Of a DNA stretch of 64,000 bases, positions 17,708 to 33,170 are shown one piece after another. Position numbers and translations under genes: made by a program. The notes beneath the pieces are model-generated. The model did no database searches. It worked only from the letters and a program-made list of their open reading frames with translations, and was not told the DNA's origin. Positions within the stretch are counted from its first letter, which is position 1. Every line of letters starts with the position of its first letter. This stretch comes from Oscillospiraceae bacterium. GTDB lineage: Bacteria; Bacillota; Clostridia; Oscillospirales; CAG-272. The stretch is from positions 23,194 through 87,193 of the forward strand of contig SVTP01000003.1 of assembly GCA_015063725.1 (NCBI GenBank), written 5' to 3'.

Positions 17708-18340
17708 CTATATAACAGAGCAAAAATCATTTCCAACAGTGACAAAAGCGTCATTTTCGCCCGAAAGCAAGCGGCAATAGTGAGCAATCTTTTGGGTCAG
17801 CTCCTCGTGTGTCAATTTTAAGAGATTGGTTTTTCTGTTTGAAATAGCAATCCACAAGAGATATTTTATTTGATTGGCGATCCATTCGGGAACCGTTGTG
17901 GGCTTTGTAAATTCTTCGCGTTTGCCGCCATAGCACTTTATGATCGACTGCCAAGTGTAGGCGTTTTCCCCTTTCAAGAATTTCTCGGGCATTCTTTCAC
18001 CATTGTGTGATAAAAAATCTCCGGCAATGGCAAGAATTGAGAGTTGTGACGCGGTAAGCATATCTTTTGAAATGCGATAAAAGGATTGATAACAAGCAAA
18101 ACCTTGACCTGAAAGCACTTCTATCAGCTGATCCATTTCTTCGTTGTTGTATCTCTCACTCGGCGCCGCGCGCAGTCTCGAAAGAGCAAGAGAAACAAAA
18201 ATGCTACTGATGTCAAGCTTGTCTTTTATCTGTTCGGTAGCGGATAAATACAGTTCATCGAGTTTTTTCTCAAAAACCTCTTGCGAAAGCTCACCCGCAC
18301 GATAGTGGGTGAGTAGTTCCAAAAGCATTTGTTTTATCAT
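17708..18340 (-). CDS. hypothetical protein (no recognisable domain)
   Basis: A 210-aa ORF with helical, non-repetitive composition, its own terminator and lower GC than its neighbours. Confidence 0.5.
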   Translation of the reverse strand: MIKQMLLELLTHYRAGELSQEVFEKKLDELYLSATEQIKDKLDISSIFVSLALSRLRAAPSERYNNEEMDQLIEVLSGQGFACYQSFYRISKDMLTASQLSILAIAGDFLSHNGERMPEKFLKGENAYTWQSIIKCYGGKREEFTKPTTVPEWIANQIKYLLWIAISNRKTNLLKLTHEELTQKIAHYCRLLSGENDAFVTVGNDFCSVI

Positions 18341-18473: not shown

Positions 18474-18500
18474 ATAAAAAAGAGCCCTTCGCAGGGCTCT
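18474..18500 (-). terminator. rho-independent terminator closing the Leu-T-box operon
   Basis: The minus-strand RNA reads AGAGCCCU-gcga-AGGGCUCU followed by UUUUUAUCUG, directly after the 18507 stop. Confidence 0.7.
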
Positions 18501-18506
18501 TGTGTT

Positions 18507-19319
18507 TTACATTTTATAAATTCTCACAGCATTCTCGGAAAGAATCATTGTGCGTTCTTCGTCGGTCAATTTGAGCTTCATAAAAGTTTCAAGCTCGACC
18601 TCGGGAGACCACATCGGAAAATCGCTACCGAACATGACGCGCTCCGCACCGTAGCGGTGAATCAGTCTCTCGCCAAGGGCGAGATCGTTCCCTGCAAACG
18701 GAAAGGTTGAGGAACAATCGACGTATAGGTTTGGAATATCGCAAAGCTCGCGCGAGGCATCGTCCCACACCGACCATCCGCCAAAATGCGCGCCAATGAC
18801 TGTCAATTTTGGAAACGCTTTGAGCACAGGCAAAAGGCGGTTGGGATTGGAATAATCGTAACGATGGTCACCTGTGTGCATCAGGACAGCAAGCCCTTCA
18901 CTCTCGCACAGTTCATACACGCGCATCATACGAGGGTCATCAATGGCAAACCCTTGAATATCAGGGTGAATTTTGATGCCGTGAAGTCCCAATGCTTTGA
19001 TCTCTGCAATAACGGCATCCTGATCTTCACAATCGGGATGCGCCGCGCCAAGTCCCGTAAAACGGTCGGGCGCCTTTGCCACCTCGGCGGCAATAAAGTG
19101 ATTGATGCTGGAGACCTGCTTGGGCGTGGTTGCCACAGATTGCACCACAAAACGGTCGATGCCAACGCGGTCGCCAATCTCCAAAAGCTCGGCGGCAACG
19201 CCACGGCAGGCGGCGTGGGTGGAATAAAACGCATCCGTCCCCGCAACCGCTCTGTCTACAATCTTTTCGGGATAGATATGACAATGCGCGTCAATAACCT
19301 GAAATTTGTTCTCTATCAT
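18507..19319 (-). CDS. amidohydrolase-2 (PF04909-like) TIM-barrel metal hydrolase/decarboxylase family protein
   Basis: 270 aa with an N-terminal IDAHCHIYP metal motif, HTGD and GSDFP. Confidence 0.75.
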   Translation of the reverse strand: MIENKFQVIDAHCHIYPEKIVDRAVAGTDAFYSTHAACRGVAAELLEIGDRVGIDRFVVQSVATTPKQVSSINHFIAAEVAKAPDRFTGLGAAHPDCEDQDAVIAEIKALGLHGIKIHPDIQGFAIDDPRMMRVYELCESEGLAVLMHTGDHRYDYSNPNRLLPVLKAFPKLTVIGAHFGGWSVWDDASRELCDIPNLYVDCSSTFPFAGNDLALGERLIHRYGAERVMFGSDFPMWSPEVELETFMKLKLTDEERTMILSENAVRIYKM

Positions 19320-19325
19320 TTTGTA

Positions 19326-21833
19326 TCATCCTTTTTTCAGTCCCAGCTTTTCAACGGCATCCTCGCGCATTTTGTACTTGAGGATCTTGCCTGCGGCATT
19401 CATTGGGAACTTGTCAACAAAATCAACGTATCTGGGCACCTTGTGGCGCGCCATACTTGCGGCTACAAAGTCTTTCATCTCCTGCTCGGTCATGCTCTCG
19501 CCATCTTTGAGGATGATACAAGCCATAATTTCCTCACCGTATTTTTCGTCGGGAACGCCGATGACCTGCACGTCGCTGACCTTGGGACAGGTGTAGATAA
19601 ATTCTTCGATCTCTTTGGGATAAATGTTTTCACCGCCGCGAATGATCATATCCTTGAGGCGCCCCGTAATGCGGTAGTTGCCGTCATCATCACGGCAAGC
19701 AAGGTCTCCTGTGTGGAGCCAACCGTCGGCATCAATGGCAGACGCGGTCGCCTGCGGCATTTTGTAATATCCCTTCATAATGTTGTATCCACGCGCCACA
19801 AACTCACCGTTGACACCGTTGGGACAGTCCTCGCCCGTTTCGGGATCGATGATCTTGCACTCAACGTTTGCAAAAACACTGCCTACGGTTTCGGTGCGGA
19901 CCTCCAACGAGTCATAATAGGAGCTCATCGTGCATCCGGGAGAGGCTTCGGTCTGACCGTAAACCGAGACGATCTCTTTCATATTCATAACCTCGGTTGC
20001 CTTTTTCATCAGGTCGGCAGGACAGTTGGAGCCTGCCATAATACCGATGCGCATATAGGAGAAATCGGTTGCGGCAAAGTCGGGATGCTCCATCATTGCA
20101 ATGAACATGGTGGGCACGCCGTTAAAGGCGGTGATGTGCTCGTTGTGCACGCAAGCCAGCGCGGGCTTGGGTGAAAAGTACGGCAGCGGCATCATGGTAG
20201 CGCCGTGCGTCATCGATGCGGTCATTGAAAGAACCATACCAAAGCAGTGGAACATGGGAACTTGGATCATCATGCGGTCAGCGGTGGAAAGGTCCATATG
20301 GTCGCCAATGTATTTGCCGTTGTTGACGACGTTGTAGTGTGTCAGCATAACGCCCTTGGGAAATCCAGTAGTGCCCGAGGTGTATTGCATGTTGCAAACG
20401 TCATCCTTATTGACAGCGGCTGCCATGCGGTAGACCTCGCTGACGGGTACCTGTGCGGCACGCTCAACGGCTTCATTCCAATCCATACATCCCTTTTGTC
20501 TGAAGCCAACGGTAATAACGTTGCGCAAAAACGGCAGGCGCTTGCTATGCAGAGCAGCGCCCGGCTTGAGCCTTGCCAATTCGGGGCAAAGCTCGGCAAT
20601 GATCTTGCCGTAGTGCGTATCCTTGGATCCCTCGGTCAAAATCAGGGTGTGTGTGTCGGATTGCTTGAGCAGATATTCTGCCTCGTGAATTTTATAAGCG
20701 GTATTGACAGTGACAAGCACGGCACCGAGCTTTACGGTTGCCCAAAAAGCAATGTACCATTGCGGCACGTTGGATGCCCAAACGGCGACATGGGAGCCTG
20801 CCTTGACGCCCAGCGCGATCAGGGAGCGCGCAAATTCGTCTACGTCATCGCGGAATTCGCTATACGTGCGCGTATAGTCGAGCGTGGTGTATTTGAAAGC
20901 GTATTGATCGGGAAATTCCTCGACCATGCGGTCAAGCACCTGCGAGAAGGTTGCATCGATCAAGAGATCCTTCTTCCAAACATACTTACCCGTATGTGCG
21001 CGGTTGTAATACAAGGTCTTTTCATTGCGTGAGGGATCGCTGAACTGGCTCATAAAGCCGACAAACTGCGAGAAGATGATCTCCATATCATCAAGCTCCT
21101 CACACCAGGCGGGATCCCAGACAAGGGAGAGGAAGCCGTCATAGTTGACGGAGCGCAAAGCAAGCATCATATCCTTGATAGGCAATTCTCCCTCACCAAG
21201 CAGACAGTATTCAATGCTATCCCCTGCTCTTTTTGCATCGTTGATATGCACGTGGCGAACGTACGCACCAAGATTTTTGATGATCTGCTCGGGACTCTCT
21301 CCTCCCTCAAAATATGCAGCGGAAAGATTCCAAAGAGATGCAAAGTAATCACTGGCAAAGCTATCCAACATCGCGCGTAGCTTTTCGGTCTTTGCAAAAA
21401 GTCCTGCCGTCTCCATCAAAAGCGAAATGCCGCGGCTCTCTGCCTCGGGCAGGAGTTCTGCAATCACTGCCTCTGTGTTGGTAAGTGCACTCTCCTCGTC
21501 CTCTGCGGCATTGGCGCGAATGCGAATGTTGGGGATATGCAAATTGGATGCGATCTCCATGCACTTGCGAATTTCGGCAATGCAGGCATCCTTTTCGTTC
21601 TTGTCAGACGGATTGCAGATGGCATCGATGCACGGAATGCGCAGCTTCTTTTCGTAGAGACGGCGAATGGTGGATGCGGCGGCGTAATTATAGAAGGCAC
21701 CGTCTTTATCAGCAAACAGGCTGTTTTTTATGTTGTGAAGCTCAATGCCCCCAAAGCCCATTGCCGTGGCGATGTCGCAAAAATCTTCAAAGGTGTGGCC
21801 GTGCCAGCCCTTTGTTGAAAAGGAAAATTTCAT
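19326..21833 (-). CDS. fusion protein: xylose-isomerase-like TIM barrel + AMP-forming acyl-CoA ligase
   Basis: 835 aa. The first roughly 270 aa resemble sugar-phosphate isomerase/epimerase TIM barrels (GFGGIELHN, HVHINDA). The remainder is an adenylate-forming ligase (YTSGTTGFPKGVMLTH, YGQTE, TGDLACRDDDGNYRITGRLKDMIIRGGENIYP). Confidence 0.8.
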   Translation of the reverse strand: MKFSFSTKGWHGHTFEDFCDIATAMGFGGIELHNIKNSLFADKDGAFYNYAAASTIRRLYEKKLRIPCIDAICNPSDKNEKDACIAEIRKCMEIASNLHIPNIRIRANAAEDEESALTNTEAVIAELLPEAESRGISLLMETAGLFAKTEKLRAMLDSFASDYFASLWNLSAAYFEGGESPEQIIKNLGAYVRHVHINDAKRAGDSIEYCLLGEGELPIKDMMLALRSVNYDGFLSLVWDPAWCEELDDMEIIFSQFVGFMSQFSDPSRNEKTLYYNRAHTGKYVWKKDLLIDATFSQVLDRMVEEFPDQYAFKYTTLDYTRTYSEFRDDVDEFARSLIALGVKAGSHVAVWASNVPQWYIAFWATVKLGAVLVTVNTAYKIHEAEYLLKQSDTHTLILTEGSKDTHYGKIIAELCPELARLKPGAALHSKRLPFLRNVITVGFRQKGCMDWNEAVERAAQVPVSEVYRMAAAVNKDDVCNMQYTSGTTGFPKGVMLTHYNVVNNGKYIGDHMDLSTADRMMIQVPMFHCFGMVLSMTASMTHGATMMPLPYFSPKPALACVHNEHITAFNGVPTMFIAMMEHPDFAATDFSYMRIGIMAGSNCPADLMKKATEVMNMKEIVSVYGQTEASPGCTMSSYYDSLEVRTETVGSVFANVECKIIDPETGEDCPNGVNGEFVARGYNIMKGYYKMPQATASAIDADGWLHTGDLACRDDDGNYRITGRLKDMIIRGGENIYPKEIEEFIYTCPKVSDVQVIGVPDEKYGEEIMACIILKDGESMTEQEMKDFVAASMARHKVPRYVDFVDKFPMNAAGKILKYKMREDAVEKLGLKKG

Positions 21834-23255: not shown

Positions 23256-23530
23256 TCAAAAGTCCCCGAGACGGATGCATAATCCACCTCGGGGACGAAT
23301 GTTCTCATTCGCGGTACCACCCCGGTTACCGAACAAGTCGGTCACCTCAAAGGCTCAGGCAAGCCCTATGCTATGATAACGGTGCATGCCGTGACCGCTT
23401 ACTAAAGGTTCTGCGGTCCTGCTCCGGAACGAGACTTTCTTCTCTTTCGGTAACGGCTCACACCAAGCGCCGCCTCTCTGAAACCGATATGGGAGAAAAA
23501 ATAATTCCTTCAACGCATTTCAAAAAAATA
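23256..23530 (-). promoter_or_regulatory. T-box riboswitch leader, specifier read as CUC (Leu)
   Basis: On the minus strand: a K-turn (GUUGAA/GGA), an AGAGAG bulge, a CGGC-GCUUGGUGUGA-GCCG distal loop, the T-box core CCGGGGUGGUACCGCG (23310-23325) and a terminator GUCCCCGAG...CUCGGGGAC+UUUU (23258-23297). The specifier CUC-G lies at 23430-23433. Confidence 0.8.
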
Positions 23531-23536
23531 TGCTTT

Positions 23537-23565
23537 ATTATACCATTTACAATGGTATTTGTCAA
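23537..23565 (-). promoter_or_regulatory. sigma-A promoter of the Leu T-box unit
   Basis: TTGACA (23560-23565), a 17-nt spacer, then TATAAT (23537-23542). Confidence 0.6.
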
Positions 23566-23587: not shown

Positions 23588-24658
23588 TTATTTTTCAATG
23601 GGATATGTCCAGCCGTAAGTGTCCTCGATTTTGCCCCATTGAATGCCTGTCAAGGTATCGTACAGATGTTGGGTAACGGTACCGATCTTGCCACCGTTAA
23701 CGGGATATTGTACGCCCTTGTAGCAAAGCTCGCCAATGGGAGAGACAACTGCAGCAGTTCCGCAGCCCCATGCTTCCTCAAGTGTGCCATTTTCAAGCGC
23801 TTCGGAAAGCTCACCGATAGAGAGCAGACGCTCGCTGACCTTGTAGCCCTCGCCCTTGAGAACCTCGATGCAGGATTTGCGCGTGATACCGGGCAGAATG
23901 GAGCCGGTCAGAGCGGGCGTGACGATCTCGCCGTTGATCTTGAACATAACGTTCATAGCGCCGACTTCTTCGATATACTTGCGTTCCACACCGTCAAGCC
24001 ACAAAACCTGAGAGTATCCCTTTTGTGCGGCTCTCTCACCGGCTCTGTTACTTGCGGCATAGTTACCGCCGCATTTTGCATAACCTGTACCGCCTCTGAC
24101 AGCACGAACATCCTCGTCCTCGATCATGATGCGAACGGGATTGATGCCCTCTTTGTAGTAGCTTCCTACGGGAGAAGCGATGATAACAAAGGTTGCGTTG
24201 TGAACTGCGTGAACACCCAAGGTCTCATCGTTTCCAAACAGGAACGGACGCAGATAAAGCGAGGTTCCGGGAGCGGACGGTGTCCAGTCCTGCTCCATTT
24301 CCACAAAGGTCAAAAGAGCCTGAAGCATATCTTCCTCGGGCATTTGCGGCAGGCACAAACGCTCGGCAGAGTTGTTCATGCGGCGAATGTTCTCCAAAGG
24401 GCGGAAGAGCTGAACCTTGCCGTCGGCACGGCGGTAAGCTTTCAGTCCTTCAAAGATCTCGGAGCCATAGTGCAGAACGGTGGATGCAGGATGGAGAGAA
24501 ATGTTTGCAAAAGGCACGATGCGCGCATTGTGCCAACCCATCTCGTGGGAATAGTCCGCCATAAACATATGGTCGGTAAAGATCTTGCCAAAGCCAAGCG
24601 TAGAAGGATCCGGCTTTGCCTTGGGAGCATCACATTTTGTAATGGAAATATTGAGCAT
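23588..24658 (-). CDS. ilvE: branched-chain amino acid aminotransferase
   Basis: 356 aa with FGKIFTDHMF, ASTVLHYGSEIFEGLKAYR, the PLP-Lys context, GTGYAKCGGNYA and PGITRKS. Confidence 0.9.
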   Translation of the reverse strand: MLNISITKCDAPKAKPDPSTLGFGKIFTDHMFMADYSHEMGWHNARIVPFANISLHPASTVLHYGSEIFEGLKAYRRADGKVQLFRPLENIRRMNNSAERLCLPQMPEEDMLQALLTFVEMEQDWTPSAPGTSLYLRPFLFGNDETLGVHAVHNATFVIIASPVGSYYKEGINPVRIMIEDEDVRAVRGGTGYAKCGGNYAASNRAGERAAQKGYSQVLWLDGVERKYIEEVGAMNVMFKINGEIVTPALTGSILPGITRKSCIEVLKGEGYKVSERLLSIGELSEALENGTLEEAWGCGTAAVVSPIGELCYKGVQYPVNGGKIGTVTQHLYDTLTGIQWGKIEDTYGWTYPIEK

Positions 24659-24685: not shown

Positions 24686-25219
24686 TCAGTTTTCGGCACC
24701 GATGCGCATAGCGCCAAGATTGATCTCCAGCATGTCGGCACGCTTTGCGGAGATAACTTTTTTCAGTGCAGCGGTGATGTTTTCTTCGTTATAGTCGCCA
24801 ATTTCCTTGAGAACCTTGCCAACAATGATCATATTTGCCAGCGTGGGAGTTCCGTTATCGCTTGCCAGCTGCGTTGCAGGAATGTAGAATACCTGAACGT
24901 CATCGCGTGCGACCTTGCGCTCAATGAGCGTGGAGTCCGCAAAGATCATACCGCCGGGCACAACGGTCGATTCAAACTTATCAAGAGAAGGCAGATTCAT
25001 GGCGATCAGGATATCGGGATTGGAAACGATAGGAGAACCAACAGGCTCATCGCTCACGATGACACTGCAGCTTGCAGTACCGCCGCGCATTTCGGGACCG
25101 TAGGACGGAAGCCAGCTGACCTGTTTATCTTCCATCAAGCCCTTGTATGCAATAAATTTACCGGCAAACAGAATGCCCTGTCCGCCAAAGCCGGAAAACA
25201 GCATTTGCTTTGTACTCAT
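24686..25219 (-). CDS. 2-oxoacid:ferredoxin oxidoreductase, gamma subunit
   Basis: 177 aa with [14 protein letters not shown], typical of the gamma subunit. It has an ATGA overlap with the beta gene. Confidence 0.85.
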
Positions 25220-25974
25220 TTTGCCGATTCCTCCTTTGCACTTCTATCCTTATAGACACCCAAGGGATAGTACGGAATCATCTTTTCGTCAATCCATTGG
25301 AGAGCCTTCTGAGGTGTCATACCCCAGTTGGTGGGACAGGTGGAAAGGACCTCTACCAGAGAAAAGCCCTTGCCATCAATTTGGTTTTGGAATGCCTTTT
25401 TGATCGCCTTTTTGGCGTTATTTACGTTCTTTACATTGTTGACCGTTACGCGAGCAAGATACTCGGGGCCTTCCAATTCAGAGAGCATTTCGCACACGCG
25501 GATCGGGAAACCGCAGTGATTGGTGTCACGTCCGTAAGGAGAGGTCTGTGTTACCTGTCCGGGCAGCGACGTAGGTGCCATCTGACCGCCGGTCATGCCG
25601 TAAATTGCGTTGTTGATAAAGATAATGGTGATGTTTTCGTTTCTTGCAGCGGCATGAACAGTCTCCGCCATACCGATGGATGCGAGGTCACCGTCACCCT
25701 GATAGGTGAACACGATGTGCTCCTCGGGATTTGCGCGTTTTACACCGGTGGCAACTGCAGGGGCTCTGCCGTGTGCCGCCTCGATCATATCACAGTTAAA
25801 ATAGTTATAAGCCATAACCGAGCAACCAACGGGAGCAATACCGATGGTTCTGCCTTCGATACCAAGCTCGTCAATGACCTCGGCTACCAGACGGTGAATG
25901 ATGCCGTGGGTGCAGCCGGGACAATAGTGAAAAGGTGCATCGGTCAGGGCGTGGGGCTTTTTGAATACAACCAT
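25216..25974 (-). CDS. 2-oxoacid:ferredoxin oxidoreductase, beta (TPP-binding) subunit
   Basis: MVVFKKPHALTDAPFHYCPGCTHG... and GDGDLASIG (the TPP/Mg motif). I chose the ATG at 25974, which overlaps the alpha stop as TAATG. Confidence 0.85.
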   Translation of the reverse strand: MVVFKKPHALTDAPFHYCPGCTHGIIHRLVAEVIDELGIEGRTIGIAPVGCSVMAYNYFNCDMIEAAHGRAPAVATGVKRANPEEHIVFTYQGDGDLASIGMAETVHAAARNENITIIFINNAIYGMTGGQMAPTSLPGQVTQTSPYGRDTNHCGFPIRVCEMLSELEGPEYLARVTVNNVKNVNNAKKAIKKAFQNQIDGKGFSLVEVLSTCPTNWGMTPQKALQWIDEKMIPYYPLGVYKDRSAKEESAK

Positions 25975-27050
25975 TAGTTTTCTCCTCCTTTCGCGGCTTT
26001 TTTGATCGCTTCGAGTACTTGCTCGGGGGACGGAATCATACCGCCTGCACGATTGCAAAGCGTTACAGGCTTTTTGCATTCGGTTGCAAGGCGTACATCC
26101 TCAATCATCTGTCCCATAGAAAGCTCAACAGAAATAAAGCTGTTGACCTTATCCGCAGCGCGACGGAAAACTTCCTTCGGGAAGGGCCAGAGCGTGATGG
26201 GACGGATCATGCCGACCTTAATTCCCTGTTTTCTTGCCTCGTTGATGGCGTTTTTGGATACGCGAGCGGCAATACCGAAGGCGGCAATGCAGATCTCGGC
26301 ATCGTCCATCATGTATTCCTCGTACAGAACCTCGTTTTCCTCGATGTAGCGGTAACGCTCATAGCGAGCAAAGTTGAACTGCTCAAGCTCCTCGGGAACG
26401 AGAGAGAGCGAATTGACAATGTTGTGGGGACGTTGCATTTTGGTGCCTGTGATTGCCCAAGGCTTTTCGGGAGCGGGCTTGACAACAAGATCATCAAGTG
26501 CCACGGGCTCCATCATCTGTCCCATGGTGCCGTCTGCCAAAATCATAGCGGTCATGCGGTAGGTGTCGGCAAGCTCAAAGCCCTTAACGGTCAGCTCTGC
26601 CATCTCTTGAACAGATGCAGGTGCGAGAACGATCATACGGAAGTCACCGTGACCGCCTGCCTTGGTTGCTTGGAAATAGTCGGATTGGCTGGGTTGAATG
26701 CCGCCAAGACCGGGACCGCCGCGTTGAACGTTGACAACGAGTGCAGGCAGATCAGAGCCTGCAAGGTAAGAAAGACCTTCGCTCTTGAGTGCGATTCCGG
26801 GACTGGAGGAAGAGGTCATAACGCGGTATCCCGTAGATGCTACGCCATAAACCATATTGATAGCCGCGATCTCGCTTTCGGCTTGCAGGAAGGTACCGCC
26901 AATCTTGGGCATCTTTTTTGCCATATAAGCCGCGATCTCGGTTTGAGGGGTGATGGGATAGCCAAAATAATGTCTGCAGCCTGCGTGAATTGCAGCCTCG
27001 GCAATGGCTTCGTTGCCTTTCATCAATACTTTATCTGCCATTTTGATCAC
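25974..27050 (-). CDS. 2-oxoacid:ferredoxin oxidoreductase, alpha subunit
   Basis: 358 aa with MKGNEAIAEAAIHAGCRHYFGYPITPQTEI and QAESEIAAINM. Confidence 0.85.
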   Translation of the reverse strand: MIKMADKVLMKGNEAIAEAAIHAGCRHYFGYPITPQTEIAAYMAKKMPKIGGTFLQAESEIAAINMVYGVASTGYRVMTSSSSPGIALKSEGLSYLAGSDLPALVVNVQRGGPGLGGIQPSQSDYFQATKAGGHGDFRMIVLAPASVQEMAELTVKGFELADTYRMTAMILADGTMGQMMEPVALDDLVVKPAPEKPWAITGTKMQRPHNIVNSLSLVPEELEQFNFARYERYRYIEENEVLYEEYMMDDAEICIAAFGIAARVSKNAINEARKQGIKVGMIRPITLWPFPKEVFRRAADKVNSFISVELSMGQMIEDVRLATECKKPVTLCNRAGGMIPSPEQVLEAIKKAAKGGEN

Positions 27051-27253
27051 CTCTCAACAGTAATAATGCAGTCGGGACACATCGTTGCACAGAAAGCACA
27101 GCCGATGCAAGCATCGGGGTTTTCTGCCTCTACGGGGTGATGTCCCTTTTTGTTGATCTTATCGGGTGCCAGACGAAGCACCTTTTTGGGGCAAGCGTCT
27201 ACACACAGACCGCAGCCCTTGCATTTATCGGTCAAAAACGTTAATTTTGCCAT
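27047..27253 (-). CDS. 2-oxoacid:ferredoxin oxidoreductase, delta (2x[4Fe-4S] ferredoxin) subunit
   Basis: 68 aa, MAKLTFLTDKCKGCGLCVDACP...CIGCAFCATMCP. It has an AAGGAG RBS and its stop has an ATGA overlap with the alpha start. Confidence 0.8.
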   Translation of the reverse strand: MAKLTFLTDKCKGCGLCVDACPKKVLRLAPDKINKKGHHPVEAENPDACIGCAFCATMCPDCIITVER

Positions 27254-27287
27254 TTTTATGTACTCCTTTGGGTAGGATTTAAAACAG

Positions 27288-27950
27288 TTACTGAATCTTT
27301 TTTTGCAGTTCAAGTGGGAAAAGATCAGGAATCTTCCCTTCCAGCTCACACTGCAGTTTTTGGTCTGCCGTTGTCATAACGACGGGCAAGCCCGACATAG
27401 CCGCCACCTCGTTGGCATAGGATACCGACCGAAGCACGTCCTCGGCAGTGGTCTCCACTCCGAGATTGGAGTTGTTGACCAATGCGGTAAATCGCATACC
27501 GCACGCGGTCTCGATCTCACGCATTACCTCAAGGGTGGATATCGCATCGCGCGTTAAGGGGCGGTAGCAGTTGATCACCATCAGCATTTCGTAATCATTC
27601 TCCGCCAAAATAGCGGGAGCGAGTCTGCCAAGCACCAAAGCACCGCGGTCGTCACCGCCCACGTCGATGATGGCGCGCATGCGGCGGTCATCGGTCAGGG
27701 CGTAGAGGTCGGGCGGAAGTGCGGGAATATCGACGTTGCTGTTTGCATAGTTGGAGCAAATGAGTCGAATGCCCGCCTCTTCCAGCTCGGCGGCACTGTC
27801 CTTGGAACGAAAATAAGGATTGACGATGTCAAGGTCGGCAAGCGTTACGGTTGGGTATTCCCTCTTGATGGCTTGTGCCAGATTGACGGCAATGTTGGTT
27901 TTGCCGCTGCCGTAATGTCCGCACAAGAGCAAAACGCGTTTGTTCATCAT
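27288..27950 (-). CDS. P-loop NTPase of unknown role (MinD/CooC/GPN-like layout)
   Basis: 220 aa with a deviant Walker A (LLCGHYGSGKTN), LADLDIVNPYF and a Walker-B-like IIDVGGDD. Its start overlaps the ligase stop as ATGA. Confidence 0.6.
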   Translation of the reverse strand: MMNKRVLLLCGHYGSGKTNIAVNLAQAIKREYPTVTLADLDIVNPYFRSKDSAAELEEAGIRLICSNYANSNVDIPALPPDLYALTDDRRMRAIIDVGGDDRGALVLGRLAPAILAENDYEMLMVINCYRPLTRDAISTLEVMREIETACGMRFTALVNNSNLGVETTAEDVLRSVSYANEVAAMSGLPVVMTTADQKLQCELEGKIPDLFPLELQKKIQ

Positions 27951-30263: not shown

Positions 30264-30540
30264 CAAAAATGCACTCGTCCCAAGCGAAAATAACCTTGAG
30301 ACGAGTGCAATAACACCCGCGGTACCACTCAAATTGCGACAAAGTCGCCACTCTTGGAGCCTGACAGCTCCTATGCATTAACGCAGCAATCACGGAAGGG
30401 TTCTACTGGAGCGTGCTCGTTCTTCCCTTCGGCTCGGAAGCTACAAATGCCGGTAAAGTCCAATGGCTTGCACCAAACGCCATCTCTCTGCAAAGACCTG
30501 TTTCCAACATCCTCTTCGTCAGTGCCTTTCTAAATTATAA
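30264..30540 (-). promoter_or_regulatory. T-box riboswitch leader, specifier read as GUA (Val)
   Basis: Stem I has a K-turn (CUGAC/CGA), a GAAG/CUUC lower helix, an AGAGAG bulge and an AUGGC-GUUUGGUGCAA-GCCAU distal loop. The T-box core is AAUUUGAGUGGUACCGCGGG (30316-30335) and the terminator is GCACUCGUC...GACGAGUGC+AUUUUUG (30264-30308). The specifier GUA-G lies at 30441-30444. Confidence 0.8.
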
Positions 30541-32895: not shown

Positions 32896-33170
32896 TCAAA
32901 AAATAAAACACCCGTCTCAATTCTTTGAGACGGGTGTGAAAATACACTCGCGGTACCACTCAAATTGCGACATTGTCGCCACTCTTGGAATCAAACAATT
33001 CCTATGCCTTGACGCAGCAATCACGGGAAATTCTACTTGAACACAGTCTTTCGAACATCCGGCTCGGAAGTGATGGGTCTTGAGTAACTTTGTCATCGGT
33101 TCACACCAACACCGACTCTCTGCGGGCATCCTTATTCGACCTTCTTCGTCATCGCCTTTTTCAAATTACG
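32896..33170 (-). promoter_or_regulatory. T-box riboswitch leader, specifier read as AUC (Ile)
   Basis: Stem I reads GGC-GAUGAC-GAAG...CUUC-CGA-GCC, with an AGAGAG bulge and a GUCGGU-GUUGGUGUGA-ACCGAU distal loop. The T-box core is AAUUUGAGUGGUACCGCG (32948-32965) and the terminator is ACACCCGUCUC...GAGACGGGUGU+UUUAUUUUUU (32896-32937). The specifier AUC-A lies at 33071-33074. Confidence 0.8.

Follow-up and report, generated by a model that had tools for sequence, protein, structure and literature searches.

A leucine T-box operon of Oscillospirales with a TIM-barrel::acyl-CoA ligase fusion as a candidate unit for isovalerate salvage

Many fibre-degrading rumen anaerobes need isovalerate and convert it to leucine, as has been known for about 60 years. 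A three-gene operon under a leucine T-box, found in the 64,000-nucleotide stretch of Oscillospiraceae DNA analysed here (the window), raises the question of whether it serves this conversion. The original prediction left its chemistry between a leucine-specific branch, in which isovalerate is activated, and an alternative route to 2-oxoisocaproate. We consider it rather likely that the unit would turn isovalerate into isovaleryl-CoA under leucine control, for use by the 2-oxoacid:ferredoxin oxidoreductase (OFOR) and IlvE encoded upstream, with a barrel domain that is non-catalytic and an amidohydrolase that is an accessory.

Results

The minus-strand unit runs from the T-box through LeuA*, the fusion and the amidohydrolase to the terminator (Table 1). 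Its leader matches RF00230 over the full length, scoring 122.5 bits against a gathering threshold of 93 (Rfam). LeuA* and the fusion overlap by ATGA, and the fusion stop (...ggaTGAtacaaaATGata) is followed by the next ATG after exactly 6 nt, the Shine-Dalgarno of the amidohydrolase sitting within the ligase gene. The specifier reads CUC, and the three genes form one leucine T-box unit, as had been proposed. The predicted six-nucleotide gap and the DAHCH, HTGD and GSDFP motifs of the amidohydrolase are all there, and the terminator, which had been placed at 18474-18500, was found at 18501..18480.

Table 1. Features of the leucine unit and its upstream context (window coordinates)
Feature	Position	Strand	Remarks
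Sigma-70-type promoter, TTGACA-17-TATAAT with TG	23537..23565	-	consensus match 12/12
T-box leader, specifier CUC (Leu), core GGGUGGUACCGCG	23288..23522	-	Rfam RF00230
Leader terminator hairpin, 15 bp + U tract	23262..23296	-	
LeuA*, degenerate 2-isopropylmalate-synthase paralogue, 461 aa	21830..23215	-	barrel without RDGEQ and HxH; LeuA allosteric domain conserved
TIM-barrel domain, fusion residues 1-265, xylose-isomerase-like	21039..21833	-	E141, N169, H196, V238 at ligand positions
Fusion linker, residues 266-295, motif YYNRAHTGKYVWKK	20949..21038	-	conserved only in fusions; dN/dS 0.03-0.06
ANL acyl-CoA ligase domain, residues 296-835 + stop	19326..20948	-	all core motifs
PF04909 amidohydrolase, 270 aa	18507..19319	-	H12, H14, K116, H118, D120, H148, H178, D233 invariant
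Intrinsic terminator at operon end, 9-bp stem then TTTTTAT	18480..18501	-	
Context: IlvE	23588-24658	-	directly upstream of the Leu unit
Context: four-subunit OFOR, gamma/beta/alpha/delta	24686-27349	-	upstream; putative user of the ligase product

Upstream, the same cluster carries ligase cassettes with Ile (AUC) and Val (GUA) T-boxes. OFOR and IlvE belong to the preceding Val T-box unit and not to the Leu unit, so that a pure leucine shortage would induce the ligase unit only. Among the 31 tRNAs recovered from this 80%-complete assembly, the exact partner of the CUC specifier, tRNA-Leu(GAG), did not turn up; with so few recovered, this absence is uninformative.

As the original prediction had it, barrel and ligase are joined without stop or frameshift. 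The frame (19326..21833, minus strand) is uninterrupted over 835 aa and contains three Pfam domains, namely PF01261 AP_endonuc_2 (residues 20-238, 74.6 bits, gathering 31.1), PF00501 AMP-binding (residues 301-690, 307.5 bits, cut-off 29.9) and PF13193 (residues 741-816, 67 bits, cut-off 24.5). More than 120 protein clusters of 832-843 aa, at no less than 79% identity, have the identical three domains. Because many independent assemblies share the frame, an assembly or frameshift artefact was rejected, and the sequencing error that had been named as a possible refutation is ruled out by this recurrence. Nor is the fusion, which had been called unusual, a rare one. It is conserved in related genomes: within the order, 77 of the 201 genomes carry it, and a public-genome search seeded with the full-length fusion alignment, from which 80 loci were kept, places it in at least 80 public genome records. 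The carriers there are rumen and gut MAGs of Acutalibacteraceae, Oscillospiraceae, Ruminococcus and Lachnospiraceae, and among such MAGs of Oscillospirales and Lachnospiraceae it is common.

Orthologous ligases also occur unfused, some of them then with a separate TIM gene. The specifier was CUC in 10/10 T-box leaders read, which precede LeuA* with the fusion (the window, L053, L054, L064), the fusion alone (L061, L062), the ligase with a separate TIM gene (L025, L029) or the ligase alone (L028, L034). A plain regular expression for the T-box core missed several leaders found by Rfam, and several leaders that it found score under the Rfam gathering threshold. Most related loci link the fusion with OFOR and IlvE, and the gene order takes several forms; in L053 the linked OFOR is a single-chain, PFOR-type enzyme.

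The ligase domain carries core motifs A3, A5, A7 and A8 and the catalytic Lys of A10 (YTSGTTGFPKG, YGQTE, GWLHTGD, GRLKDMIIRGGENIYP and AAGKILK), invariant across 13 diverse fusions. It is under strong purifying selection (dN/dS 0.013-0.03); this and the other dN/dS values given here are rough, since dS is already 0.8-1.2 for the nearest relatives of the window and saturates for L159. No curated NCBIfam model scores the domain above its cut-off; the best match is NF009233 (PRK12583, 'fatty acid CoA ligase family protein') at residues 290-833, with 670.5 bits against a cut-off of 832. PDB matches reach E 1e-76, and the closest solved ANL enzymes are 8weu/8wev, FadD13 and malonyl-CoA synthetase; neither these nor NF009233 have an N-terminal TIM barrel. 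By its sequence, the ligase domain is the only clearly competent pathway enzyme among the three genes of the unit. Gene context makes isovalerate its most likely substrate and isovaleryl-CoA its product.

We then considered the canonical leucine pathway. In this genome, no protein matches LeuA, LeuB or LeuC at the curated cut-offs, and the LeuABCD route was not found in its 80%-complete assembly. A LeuA-like and aconitase-like pair on contig C8 was rejected as canonical LeuA, as it scores far under the LeuA and LeuC cut-offs and is citrate-branch-like. Across the 201 genomes, LeuB is present in 46 of 122 with the ligase versus 65 of 79 without it. The 21 genomes with a fusion of 64% identity or higher all lack LeuB. 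With 46 genomes having both, the ligase is no plain replacement for the classical route.

In LeuA*, the RDGEQ and HxH positions read TLCRADN and RCSNQ when aligned to the isopropylmalate synthase structures 3ewb and 3rmj, and neither motif is retained in any of 95 copies. The protein scores under all LeuA cut-offs, and the positions conserved in at least 95% of the 95 copies cluster in the regulatory domain. LeuA* is thus predicted to be a catalytically dead LeuA paralogue that keeps the leucine-binding domain. It was absent from all 20 unfused ligase loci examined.

The barrel domain shows a similar loss. Its model (AF2 pLDDT 89.2) has a xylose-isomerase-like fold, with Foldseek TM scores of 0.74-0.79 to Art22, IolI, AsbF and UlaE. 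Of the canonical Glu-Asp-His-Glu metal ligands on strands 5 to 8, the window keeps two of four (E, N, H, V), with Asn and Val where its relatives would have Asp and Glu, and the 'HH' after the Asp reads S171, A172. Ligand and 'HH' positions are intact in 10/10 fusions without LeuA* and in all six standalone TIM genes. Of the 97 fusions that have LeuA*, 87 show altered ligands, and ligand state changes at least nine times on the tree. Lacking two of the four ligands, the barrel is unlikely to supply extra chemistry, and we regard it in the window as a predicted non-catalytic domain. It is no decaying relic, a reading rejected at a dN/dS of about 0.06 (0.056-0.077, similar to IlvE). Its catalytic face retains E31, E141, H196, D199, W168 and W239, so that ligand binding or a different chemistry could still take place there.

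Enzymes of the same fold include AsbF (3-dehydroshikimate dehydratase, 3dx5), the isomerase Art22 (8z1i/9koj), MJ1311 (3wqo) and IolI (1i60). The barrel family profile matches AsbF at E 7e-16; identity to these relatives is only 14-22%, and no substrate is transferable from any of the four. The product of AsbF is an acid that is then activated by an adenylating enzyme, a precedent for a barrel beside an ANL enzyme. Literature searches on pairings of a barrel with an acyl-CoA ligase, and on Art22, returned nothing relevant.

The amidohydrolase looks intact. PF04909 covers residues 9-269 with 132.2 bits (gathering 26.4), and the model (AF2 pLDDT 94.1) matches LigW, gamma-resorcylate decarboxylase (gamma-RSD) and ACMSD at E 1e-16 in Foldseek. 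The metal site, HxH on strand 1 (H12, H14), His on strands 5 and 6 (H148, H178) and Asp on strand 8 (D233), is invariant in 39 sequences, as are the strand-4 residues K116, H118 and D120, at whose positions BB4693 and LigW differ. Purifying selection is evident here too (dN/dS 0.055-0.069). Relatives of the same family and fold are BB4693 (3irs), LigW, ACMSD, gamma-resorcylate decarboxylase, LigI-like 2ffi and CAC3332 (3cjp). The best sequence match, BB4693, is itself uncharacterised, and there was no characterised close relative among the sequence and structure matches; the PF04909 decarboxylases match only in part (E 1e-6 to 1e-10). At 270 aa the protein is about 60 residues shorter than decarboxylases of the ACMSD, LigW and gamma-RSD type (320-375 aa).

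Its position is far less stable than its active site. Of 100 scoreable fusions, 37 have the gene immediately 3' of the ligase, in several cluster arrangements, and the other 63 do not; it can also sit elsewhere in the cluster, is missing from 20/20 unfused ligase loci, and adjacency changes at least 13 times on the tree. Family members occur in 132 of the 201 genomes, in settings that include positions after ilvE, after OFOR gamma, beside ispF and RNase H and, in L067, at the end of the his operon adjoining a PHP phosphatase. Two genomes (G042, G180) have a family member and no ligase; in L070, the gene is enclosed between the Leu T-box and the next T-box. Relatives in such unrelated operons as his and ispF suggest that the link to the leucine pathway may be loose. 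Its absence from most loci led us to reject the amidohydrolase as a core step of the pathway, and for the same reason the original prediction does not hold where it made the gene a fixed part of the unit. We describe it as a predicted, intact metal-dependent hydrolase-type enzyme that is an optional and movable accessory of the salvage cluster.

Discussion

These data can be read as follows. Uncharged tRNA-Leu would let transcription pass the CUC T-box into the three genes, and the ANL domain would, most likely, form isovaleryl-CoA from isovalerate, ATP and CoA. The four-subunit OFOR encoded upstream could then carboxylate isovaleryl-CoA reductively to 4-methyl-2-oxopentanoate, which IlvE would transaminate to leucine, replacing the LeuABCD route; feedback would be exerted through the leucine-binding domain of LeuA*. 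The leucine-specific branch of the original prediction therefore fits the comparative evidence, namely the conserved CUC T-box in four architectures, the linkage of OFOR and IlvE in most loci and the anticorrelation with LeuB, while isovalerate as the substrate and the coupling of the ligase to OFOR and IlvE are what we infer from gene context. Unfused ligase architectures, the uniform CUC specifier of the leaders read, the LeuB anticorrelation, loss of barrel ligands and mobility of the amidohydrolase are new in this analysis.

The barrel would descend from a ligand-intact metal enzyme that partners the ligase, fused or separate, in other lineages, and is probably a structural or docking partner for the co-translated LeuA*. 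We tentatively suggest, as a possibility that is more doubtful than the salvage role itself, that LeuA* and the ligand-depleted barrel act as a leucine-sensing allosteric brake on the isovalerate ligase, the barrel having turned into a docking adaptor. Such a brake would explain why LeuA* is found only with the fused architecture, why barrel ligands decayed repeatedly and only after LeuA* arrived, and why both LeuA* and the barrel are under strong purifying selection; it is their co-occurrence that points to a regulatory role.

Other explanations have to be weighed against isovalerate salvage. The ligase might mainly serve branched-chain fatty acid synthesis, making isovaleryl-CoA or some other branched acyl-CoA as the primer, with the Leu T-box there because leucine is the normal primer source. 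MbcS, the methylbutyryl-CoA synthetase of Staphylococcus aureus, is a precedent, since it is described as an ATP-dependent ANL-family enzyme that feeds FabH for lipids and prefers 2-methylbutyrate and isobutyrate, being poor with isovalerate (PMC10026030). The likeness would be one of function, that of an ANL-family synthetase dedicated to scavenging short branched-chain acids, and the abstract of that paper mentions no T-box, N-terminal barrel or LeuA-like partner (PMC10026030). Genomes with both LeuB and the ligase would also suit a primer role, as the leucine pathway needs no replacement there. Linkage to OFOR and IlvE, the anticorrelation with LeuB and the company of a protein that retains only the leucine-binding domain of LeuA nevertheless make this improbable, and tRNA-Leu charging signals supply for protein synthesis rather than lipid need. 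We give still less credence, indeed very little, to the idea that barrel and amidohydrolase are both catalytic in a different route to 2-oxoisocaproate or leucine, for example with a reversible decarboxylase acting with the ligase. PF04909 does include reversible decarboxylases, the closest folds among them, and the ancestral barrel had an intact metal site; the window barrel, however, is without its Asp and Glu ligands, most fusion loci and all unfused ones lack the amidohydrolase, and its short length, the extra invariant strand-4 Lys, His and Asp and a closest relative that is uncharacterised leave this second option of the original prediction unsupported. The substrates of characterised PF04909 decarboxylases are phenolic or vinylogous acids, and these enzymes are not known to use aliphatic ones.

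Two further explanations concern the amidohydrolase. It may have taken over the former reaction of the barrel by non-orthologous replacement, in which case a metal-dependent step beside the ligase would still be needed. Both proteins belong to the metal-dependent (beta/alpha)8 enzymes, all 37 fusions with the gene directly 3' have an altered barrel site, and none of 18 ligand-intact scoreable fusions has an adjacent amidohydrolase. Yet 45 fusions with an altered barrel have none either, the family turns up in the his operon of L067 and in the two ligase-free genomes, and an independent-pairs test gave a median p of 0.5 (6 supported pairs, 1-3 informative contrasts). With so few informative pairs we do not claim the correlation as established, and we think replacement quite unlikely. 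A less remote alternative, although still an unlikely one, would make the amidohydrolase a passenger: a small, widely distributed housekeeping hydrolase that tends to settle at the ends of operons and plays no part in leucine salvage. The breadth of the family and its heterogeneous contexts suit a passenger; its recurrence 3' of the ligase inside the T-box unit with many changes on the tree, the tight spacing with a Shine-Dalgarno inside the ligase gene, and its enclosure between two T-boxes in L070 argue against one.

If isovalerate salvage is the correct reading, the unit offers a concrete candidate gene for isovalerate activation, widespread in uncultured Oscillospirales and Lachnospiraceae. 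This would bear on isoacid feed supplements and on models of amino-acid auxotrophy in gut communities. The barrel provides a natural series from an enzyme domain to a non-catalytic one (separate gene, fused intact, fused with ligands lost), in which the loss of ligands goes with the appearance of a second pseudoenzyme, LeuA*. The amidohydrolase, with its invariant strand-4 Lys, His and Asp, represents a very common, uncharacterised clostridial protein family.

Among known systems, leucine-gene T-boxes (RF00230) share with this leader the full-length match, the CUC specifier, the T-box core and the terminator; they control leuS or ilv-leu genes, whereas the controlled gene here is an acyl-CoA ligase unit. 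A full-text literature search found no paper describing this gene set, and no paper naming an isovalerate-activating enzyme or its control. Labelling work by Allison and co-workers in the 1960s-80s reportedly showed that rumen and gut anaerobes form leucine from isovalerate by reductive carboxylation, and is said to have named no genes. The unit has in common with that route the rumen and gut habitat and a predicted path from acid to acyl-CoA, by a ferredoxin-dependent step to the 2-oxoacid, and on to the amino acid. Control by a T-box, fusion to a barrel, a dead LeuA partner and an accompanying amidohydrolase lie outside the classical description of the isovalerate route.

Results

All elements of the three-gene Leu T-box unit and its terminator were found in the window as the original prediction had described them; they are collected in the table below, together with related loci from other genomes (L handles). 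The unit encodes LeuA*, a degenerate paralogue of 2-isopropylmalate synthase (IPMS), a fusion of a xylose-isomerase-like barrel (TIM) with an ANL acyl-CoA ligase (ACS), and an amidohydrolase (AH2). In the Infernal alignment the specifier of the window's leader was CUC (Leu), and its T-box core reads GGGUGGUACCGCG. The fusion gene has the Shine-Dalgarno sequence GAGGAGG, and the amidohydrolase gene starts 6 nt past the fusion stop, with its AAGGA lying within the fusion gene. CUC was the specifier in all 10 leaders read from Infernal alignments, and predicted leucine control tracks the ligase rather than the accessory genes. At L026 (7166-11652), a UGG (Trp) T-box is followed by a TrpB-like PALP gene and then by genes for an unfused ligase orthologue and a standalone TIM. 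Past the operon terminator of the window lies a 210-aa ORF (17708-18340, minus strand) with a promoter-like site at 18424-18396 and no Pfam match. Riboswitches for lysine (L066 1803-1988), ZMP/ZTP (L144 1877-1988) and TPP (L061 5867-5972) near the Leu unit are unrelated to it. A tRNA-Leu(GAG) was absent among the 31 tRNAs recovered from the window's own genome (G000), an 80%-complete MAG.

Features of the Leu unit (window positions unless stated otherwise) and their counterparts at related loci
Feature	Location	Strand	Remark
Sigma-70-type promoter	23565-23537	-	12/12 match
T-box leader, full length	23522-23288	-	122.5 bits; Rfam gathering score 93
Leader terminator hairpin	23296-23262	-	15 bp + U tract
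LeuA-like protein (LeuA*) gene	23215-21830	-	461 aa
TIM::ACS fusion gene	21833-19326	-	835 aa; ATGA overlap with LeuA-like gene
PF01261 xylose-isomerase-like TIM barrel	fusion residues 20-238		74.6 bits
PF00501	fusion residues 301-690		307.5 bits
PF13193	fusion residues 741-816		67 bits
PF04909 amidohydrolase gene	19319-18507	-	270 aa
Operon terminator	18501-18480	-	9-bp GC-rich hairpin + TTTTTAT; ends Leu unit
Val (GUA), Ile (AUC) T-box leaders	30294-30531 and 32923-33161
CUC leader before LeuA*-TIM::ACS	window, L053, L054, L064
CUC leader before TIM::ACS without LeuA*	L061, L062
CUC leader before ACS, then separate TIM	L025, L029
CUC leader before ACS alone	L028, L034
Amidohydrolase	L070		enclosed by Leu T-box and next T-box
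Amidohydrolase	L073		after OFOR gamma
Amidohydrolase	L071		after ilvE; genome without ligase
Amidohydrolase	L067		last in his operon, behind PHP phosphatase, upstream of Leu T-box
Amidohydrolase	L074		beside another PHP gene
Amidohydrolase	L072		beside ispF and RNase H

Among 5.8 billion proteins searched, more than 120 protein clusters matched the fusion at 79% identity or more, all of 832-843 aa and with the same three domains. A resequencing error as the source of the fusion is excluded, since the same frame and domains recur in many genomes and protein clusters. The gene is genuine, as had been claimed, and conserved in relatives; the joining of barrel and ligase, originally called unusual, is real but common, being carried by 77 of 201 sampled genomes of the order (57-80% identity). 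Another 45 of these genomes had a ligase orthologue without the barrel, at 48-60% identity across residues about 290-833; the remaining 79 had neither form. A scan of GTDB species genomes gave at least 600 matches, and the best 80 loci, examined for source, came from rumen or gut MAGs labelled Acutalibacteraceae, Oscillospiraceae, Ruminococcus, Lachnospiraceae and Faecousia, with one cultured carrier among them, Anaerobacterium chartisolvens DSM 27016. At 6 of 20 unfused loci (L025, L026, L027, L029, L032, L033), a separate 270-aa TIM gene lies directly 3' of the ligase, and its product is 25-30% identical to the window's barrel domain. That two domains are fused in one lineage and encoded side by side in another is a classical sign of a functional pair, and barrel and ligase, linked in two architectures, would be such a pair. 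At L029 (5189-9693) the Leu T-box is followed by ACS, TIM and a PaaK-like ligase, in that order. At L032 (8023-11486) a gene for a two-domain GNAT acetyltransferase follows ACS-TIM, a possible hint that the ligase is controlled through acyl-lysine.

By Pfam, a full ANL adenylate-forming enzyme lies C-terminal of the barrel, and its core motifs are complete (YTSGTTGFPKG, YGQTE, GWLHTGD, GRLKDMIIRGGENIYP, AAGKILK). The top curated model, NF009233 (PRK12583), scored 670.5 bits, under its 832-bit cut-off, which places the domain as an ANL acyl-CoA ligase outside every curated subfamily. The nearest solved structures are fatty-acyl, feruloyl and malonyl-CoA synthetases. Compared with relatives at 88%, 80% and 74% identity, the ligase domain gave a dN/dS of 0.013-0.03 and the barrel one of 0.056-0.077, values that are rough because dS is near saturation. 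The barrel is thus about 4-fold above the ligase domain and comparable to the transaminase IlvE (0.046-0.079) and LeuA* (0.05-0.11), and its dN/dS rules it out as a relic.

The barrel's metal site has changed. Aligned to solved relatives and 22 family members, the canonical Glu-Asp-His-Glu positions are E141, N169, H196 and V238 in the window, and the HH that follows the Asp of intact barrels is S171, A172; by its predicted ligands, the window's barrel is degenerate. When ligand state was scored in 107 fusions, the full set (E-D-HH-H-D-E) was present in 10/10 fusions without LeuA* and in 6/6 standalone TIM genes, and at least one ligand was changed in 87 of 97 LeuA*-bearing fusions (E141K in a large clade; D169N/H/Q/E; H171Y/S/N/T/Q/C/R; E238V/I/T/Q/D/A). 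The E141K clade, of Faecousia/Oscillospiraceae (L057, L108, L121, L126 plus about 20 loci), keeps all other ligands (KDHHHHDE), and its lysine occupies the place of the first metal-binding and catalytic Glu. On the ligase-domain tree, the intact state required at least 9 changes and LeuA* presence 2. The AlphaFold model of the barrel is confident (pLDDT 89.2). Its nearest folds are Art22, MJ1311, IolI, AsbF and UlaE (TM 0.74-0.79, identity 14-22%), AsbF also being the best match of the family profile (E 7e-16), and a substrate for the barrel is not transferable from any of them.

LeuA*, encoded outside the stretch first singled out but needed to interpret it, has itself lost its catalytic motifs. 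Aligned to the solved IPMS 3ewb and 3rmj, TLRDGEQ became TLCRADN and HCHND became RCSNQ, and none of 95 LeuA* copies retained the RDGEQ or HxH motif. The residues conserved at 95% or more cluster in the C-terminal LeuA allosteric domain (positions 380-454). LeuA* was found at 0/20 unfused ligase loci.

The genes directly upstream of the Leu unit in the window are those for IlvE, the four subunits of a 2-oxoacid:ferredoxin oxidoreductase (OFOR) and a P-loop protein, together with two HTH-cupin-ligase genes. The latter are headed by the Val and Ile T-boxes, which at 85.8 and 89.2 bits fall slightly short of the gathering score (93), so that a default Rfam scan shows the Leu leader only. Linkage of the Leu unit to this OFOR/IlvE block recurs in related genomes, with at least five gene orders, and at L053 a single-chain PFOR-type OFOR follows the unit. 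G000, at 80% completeness, gave no match at curated cut-offs for LeuA, LeuB or LeuC. A 459-aa LeuA/homocitrate-synthase-like gene beside a 646-aa aconitase-like gene on another of its contigs (C8, 14647-17753) was rejected as leucine genes, the scores being far too low; the pair resembles, and probably is, a Re-citrate-synthase/aconitase branch. On contig C9 (40546-42906), another ANL ligase, which shares 30% identity with the ligase domain, directly precedes an OFOR-alpha-like gene and may form with it a further acid-to-amino-acid salvage pair. Across the 201 genomes, LeuB was above cut-off in 46 of 122 with the ligase, where the two coexist, versus 65 of 79 without it (Fisher's p 3e-10, overstated since relatives are not independent), and in 0/21 whose fusion shares 64% identity or more with that of the window.

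The amidohydrolase matched PF04909 at 132.2 bits, with a model pLDDT of 94.1 and a dN/dS of 0.055-0.069 (rough, dS being near saturation). H12, H14, K116, H118, D120, H148, H178 and D233 were invariant in 39 sequences. Among solved structures its best sequence match is BB4693, which is uncharacterised (E 6e-25 with the profile), whereas decarboxylases gave only partial sequence matches; by fold it is similar to LigW, gamma-RSD and ACMSD, from which it differs in being about 60 residues shorter. In alignments, an extra invariant Lys/His/Asp on strand 4 sets it apart from BB4693 and LigW. The strand-4 Lys may resemble the bridging lysine known from binuclear hydrolases. The family occurs in 132 of 201 genomes. 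In 37 of 100 scoreable fusions, across several arrangements of the cluster, a member stands immediately 3' of the ligase; judged from gene order, the amidohydrolase behaves as an optional, mobile accessory, with a distinctive invariant site. PHP-domain (histidinol-phosphatase-like) genes pair with amidohydrolase relatives in two unrelated places, the his-operon end HisB-H-A-F-IE-PHP-AH2 just upstream of a Leu T-box (L067 1246-6161) and an overlapping AH2-PHP pair (L074 6164-7826).

Discussion

The conversion of isovalerate to leucine has long been established by rumen labelling studies. In the Leu unit, the ligase would activate isovalerate to isovaleryl-CoA, OFOR would carboxylate this to 2-oxoisocaproate, and IlvE would turn the latter into leucine. 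Such a Leu-specific branch had been suggested originally, and it gains support from the CUC T-boxes, the OFOR/IlvE linkage and the LeuB counts; isovalerate as the substrate is what we infer. Since OFOR and IlvE sit in the preceding Val unit, leucine starvation alone would raise the ligase unit only.

As for the barrel, an active enzyme likely worked beside the ligase at the outset, the two then fused, LeuA* was recruited, and the metal site was lost repeatedly while the fold was kept. A sensor would be the most economical role for LeuA*. LeuA* occurs strictly with the fused barrel, which points to the barrel as its possible docking site, and we tentatively consider, with more doubt than confidence, that LeuA* senses leucine and acts on the ligase from there.

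Several roles may be considered for the amidohydrolase. It might replace the reaction lost by the barrel: the 37 fusions directly followed by the amidohydrolase are all altered in the barrel, and 0 of 18 intact-barrel fusions have it there, but 45 altered-barrel fusions also lack it in that position, and adjacency and barrel decay offer too few phylogenetically independent contrasts. For these two reasons no pathway step is assigned to it. It might instead deacylate the catalytic lysine of the ligase, a reading at which the GNAT gene of one locus, L032, may hint, or hydrolyse a by-product of the transaminase, or be a mere passenger.

Collectively, our results confirm the original observation, support its interpretation in part, and point to a putative branched-acid CoA ligase under the control of a Leu T-box, with a pseudo-barrel and an uncharacterised hydrolase. 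A full-text literature search brought up no account of a ligase under Leu T-box control, of the TIM::ACS fusion or of its partner genes. The characterised enzyme closest in function to the ligase of the Leu unit is MbcS of S. aureus, which has a preference for 2-methylbutyrate and isobutyrate and works in lipid synthesis (PMC10026030).
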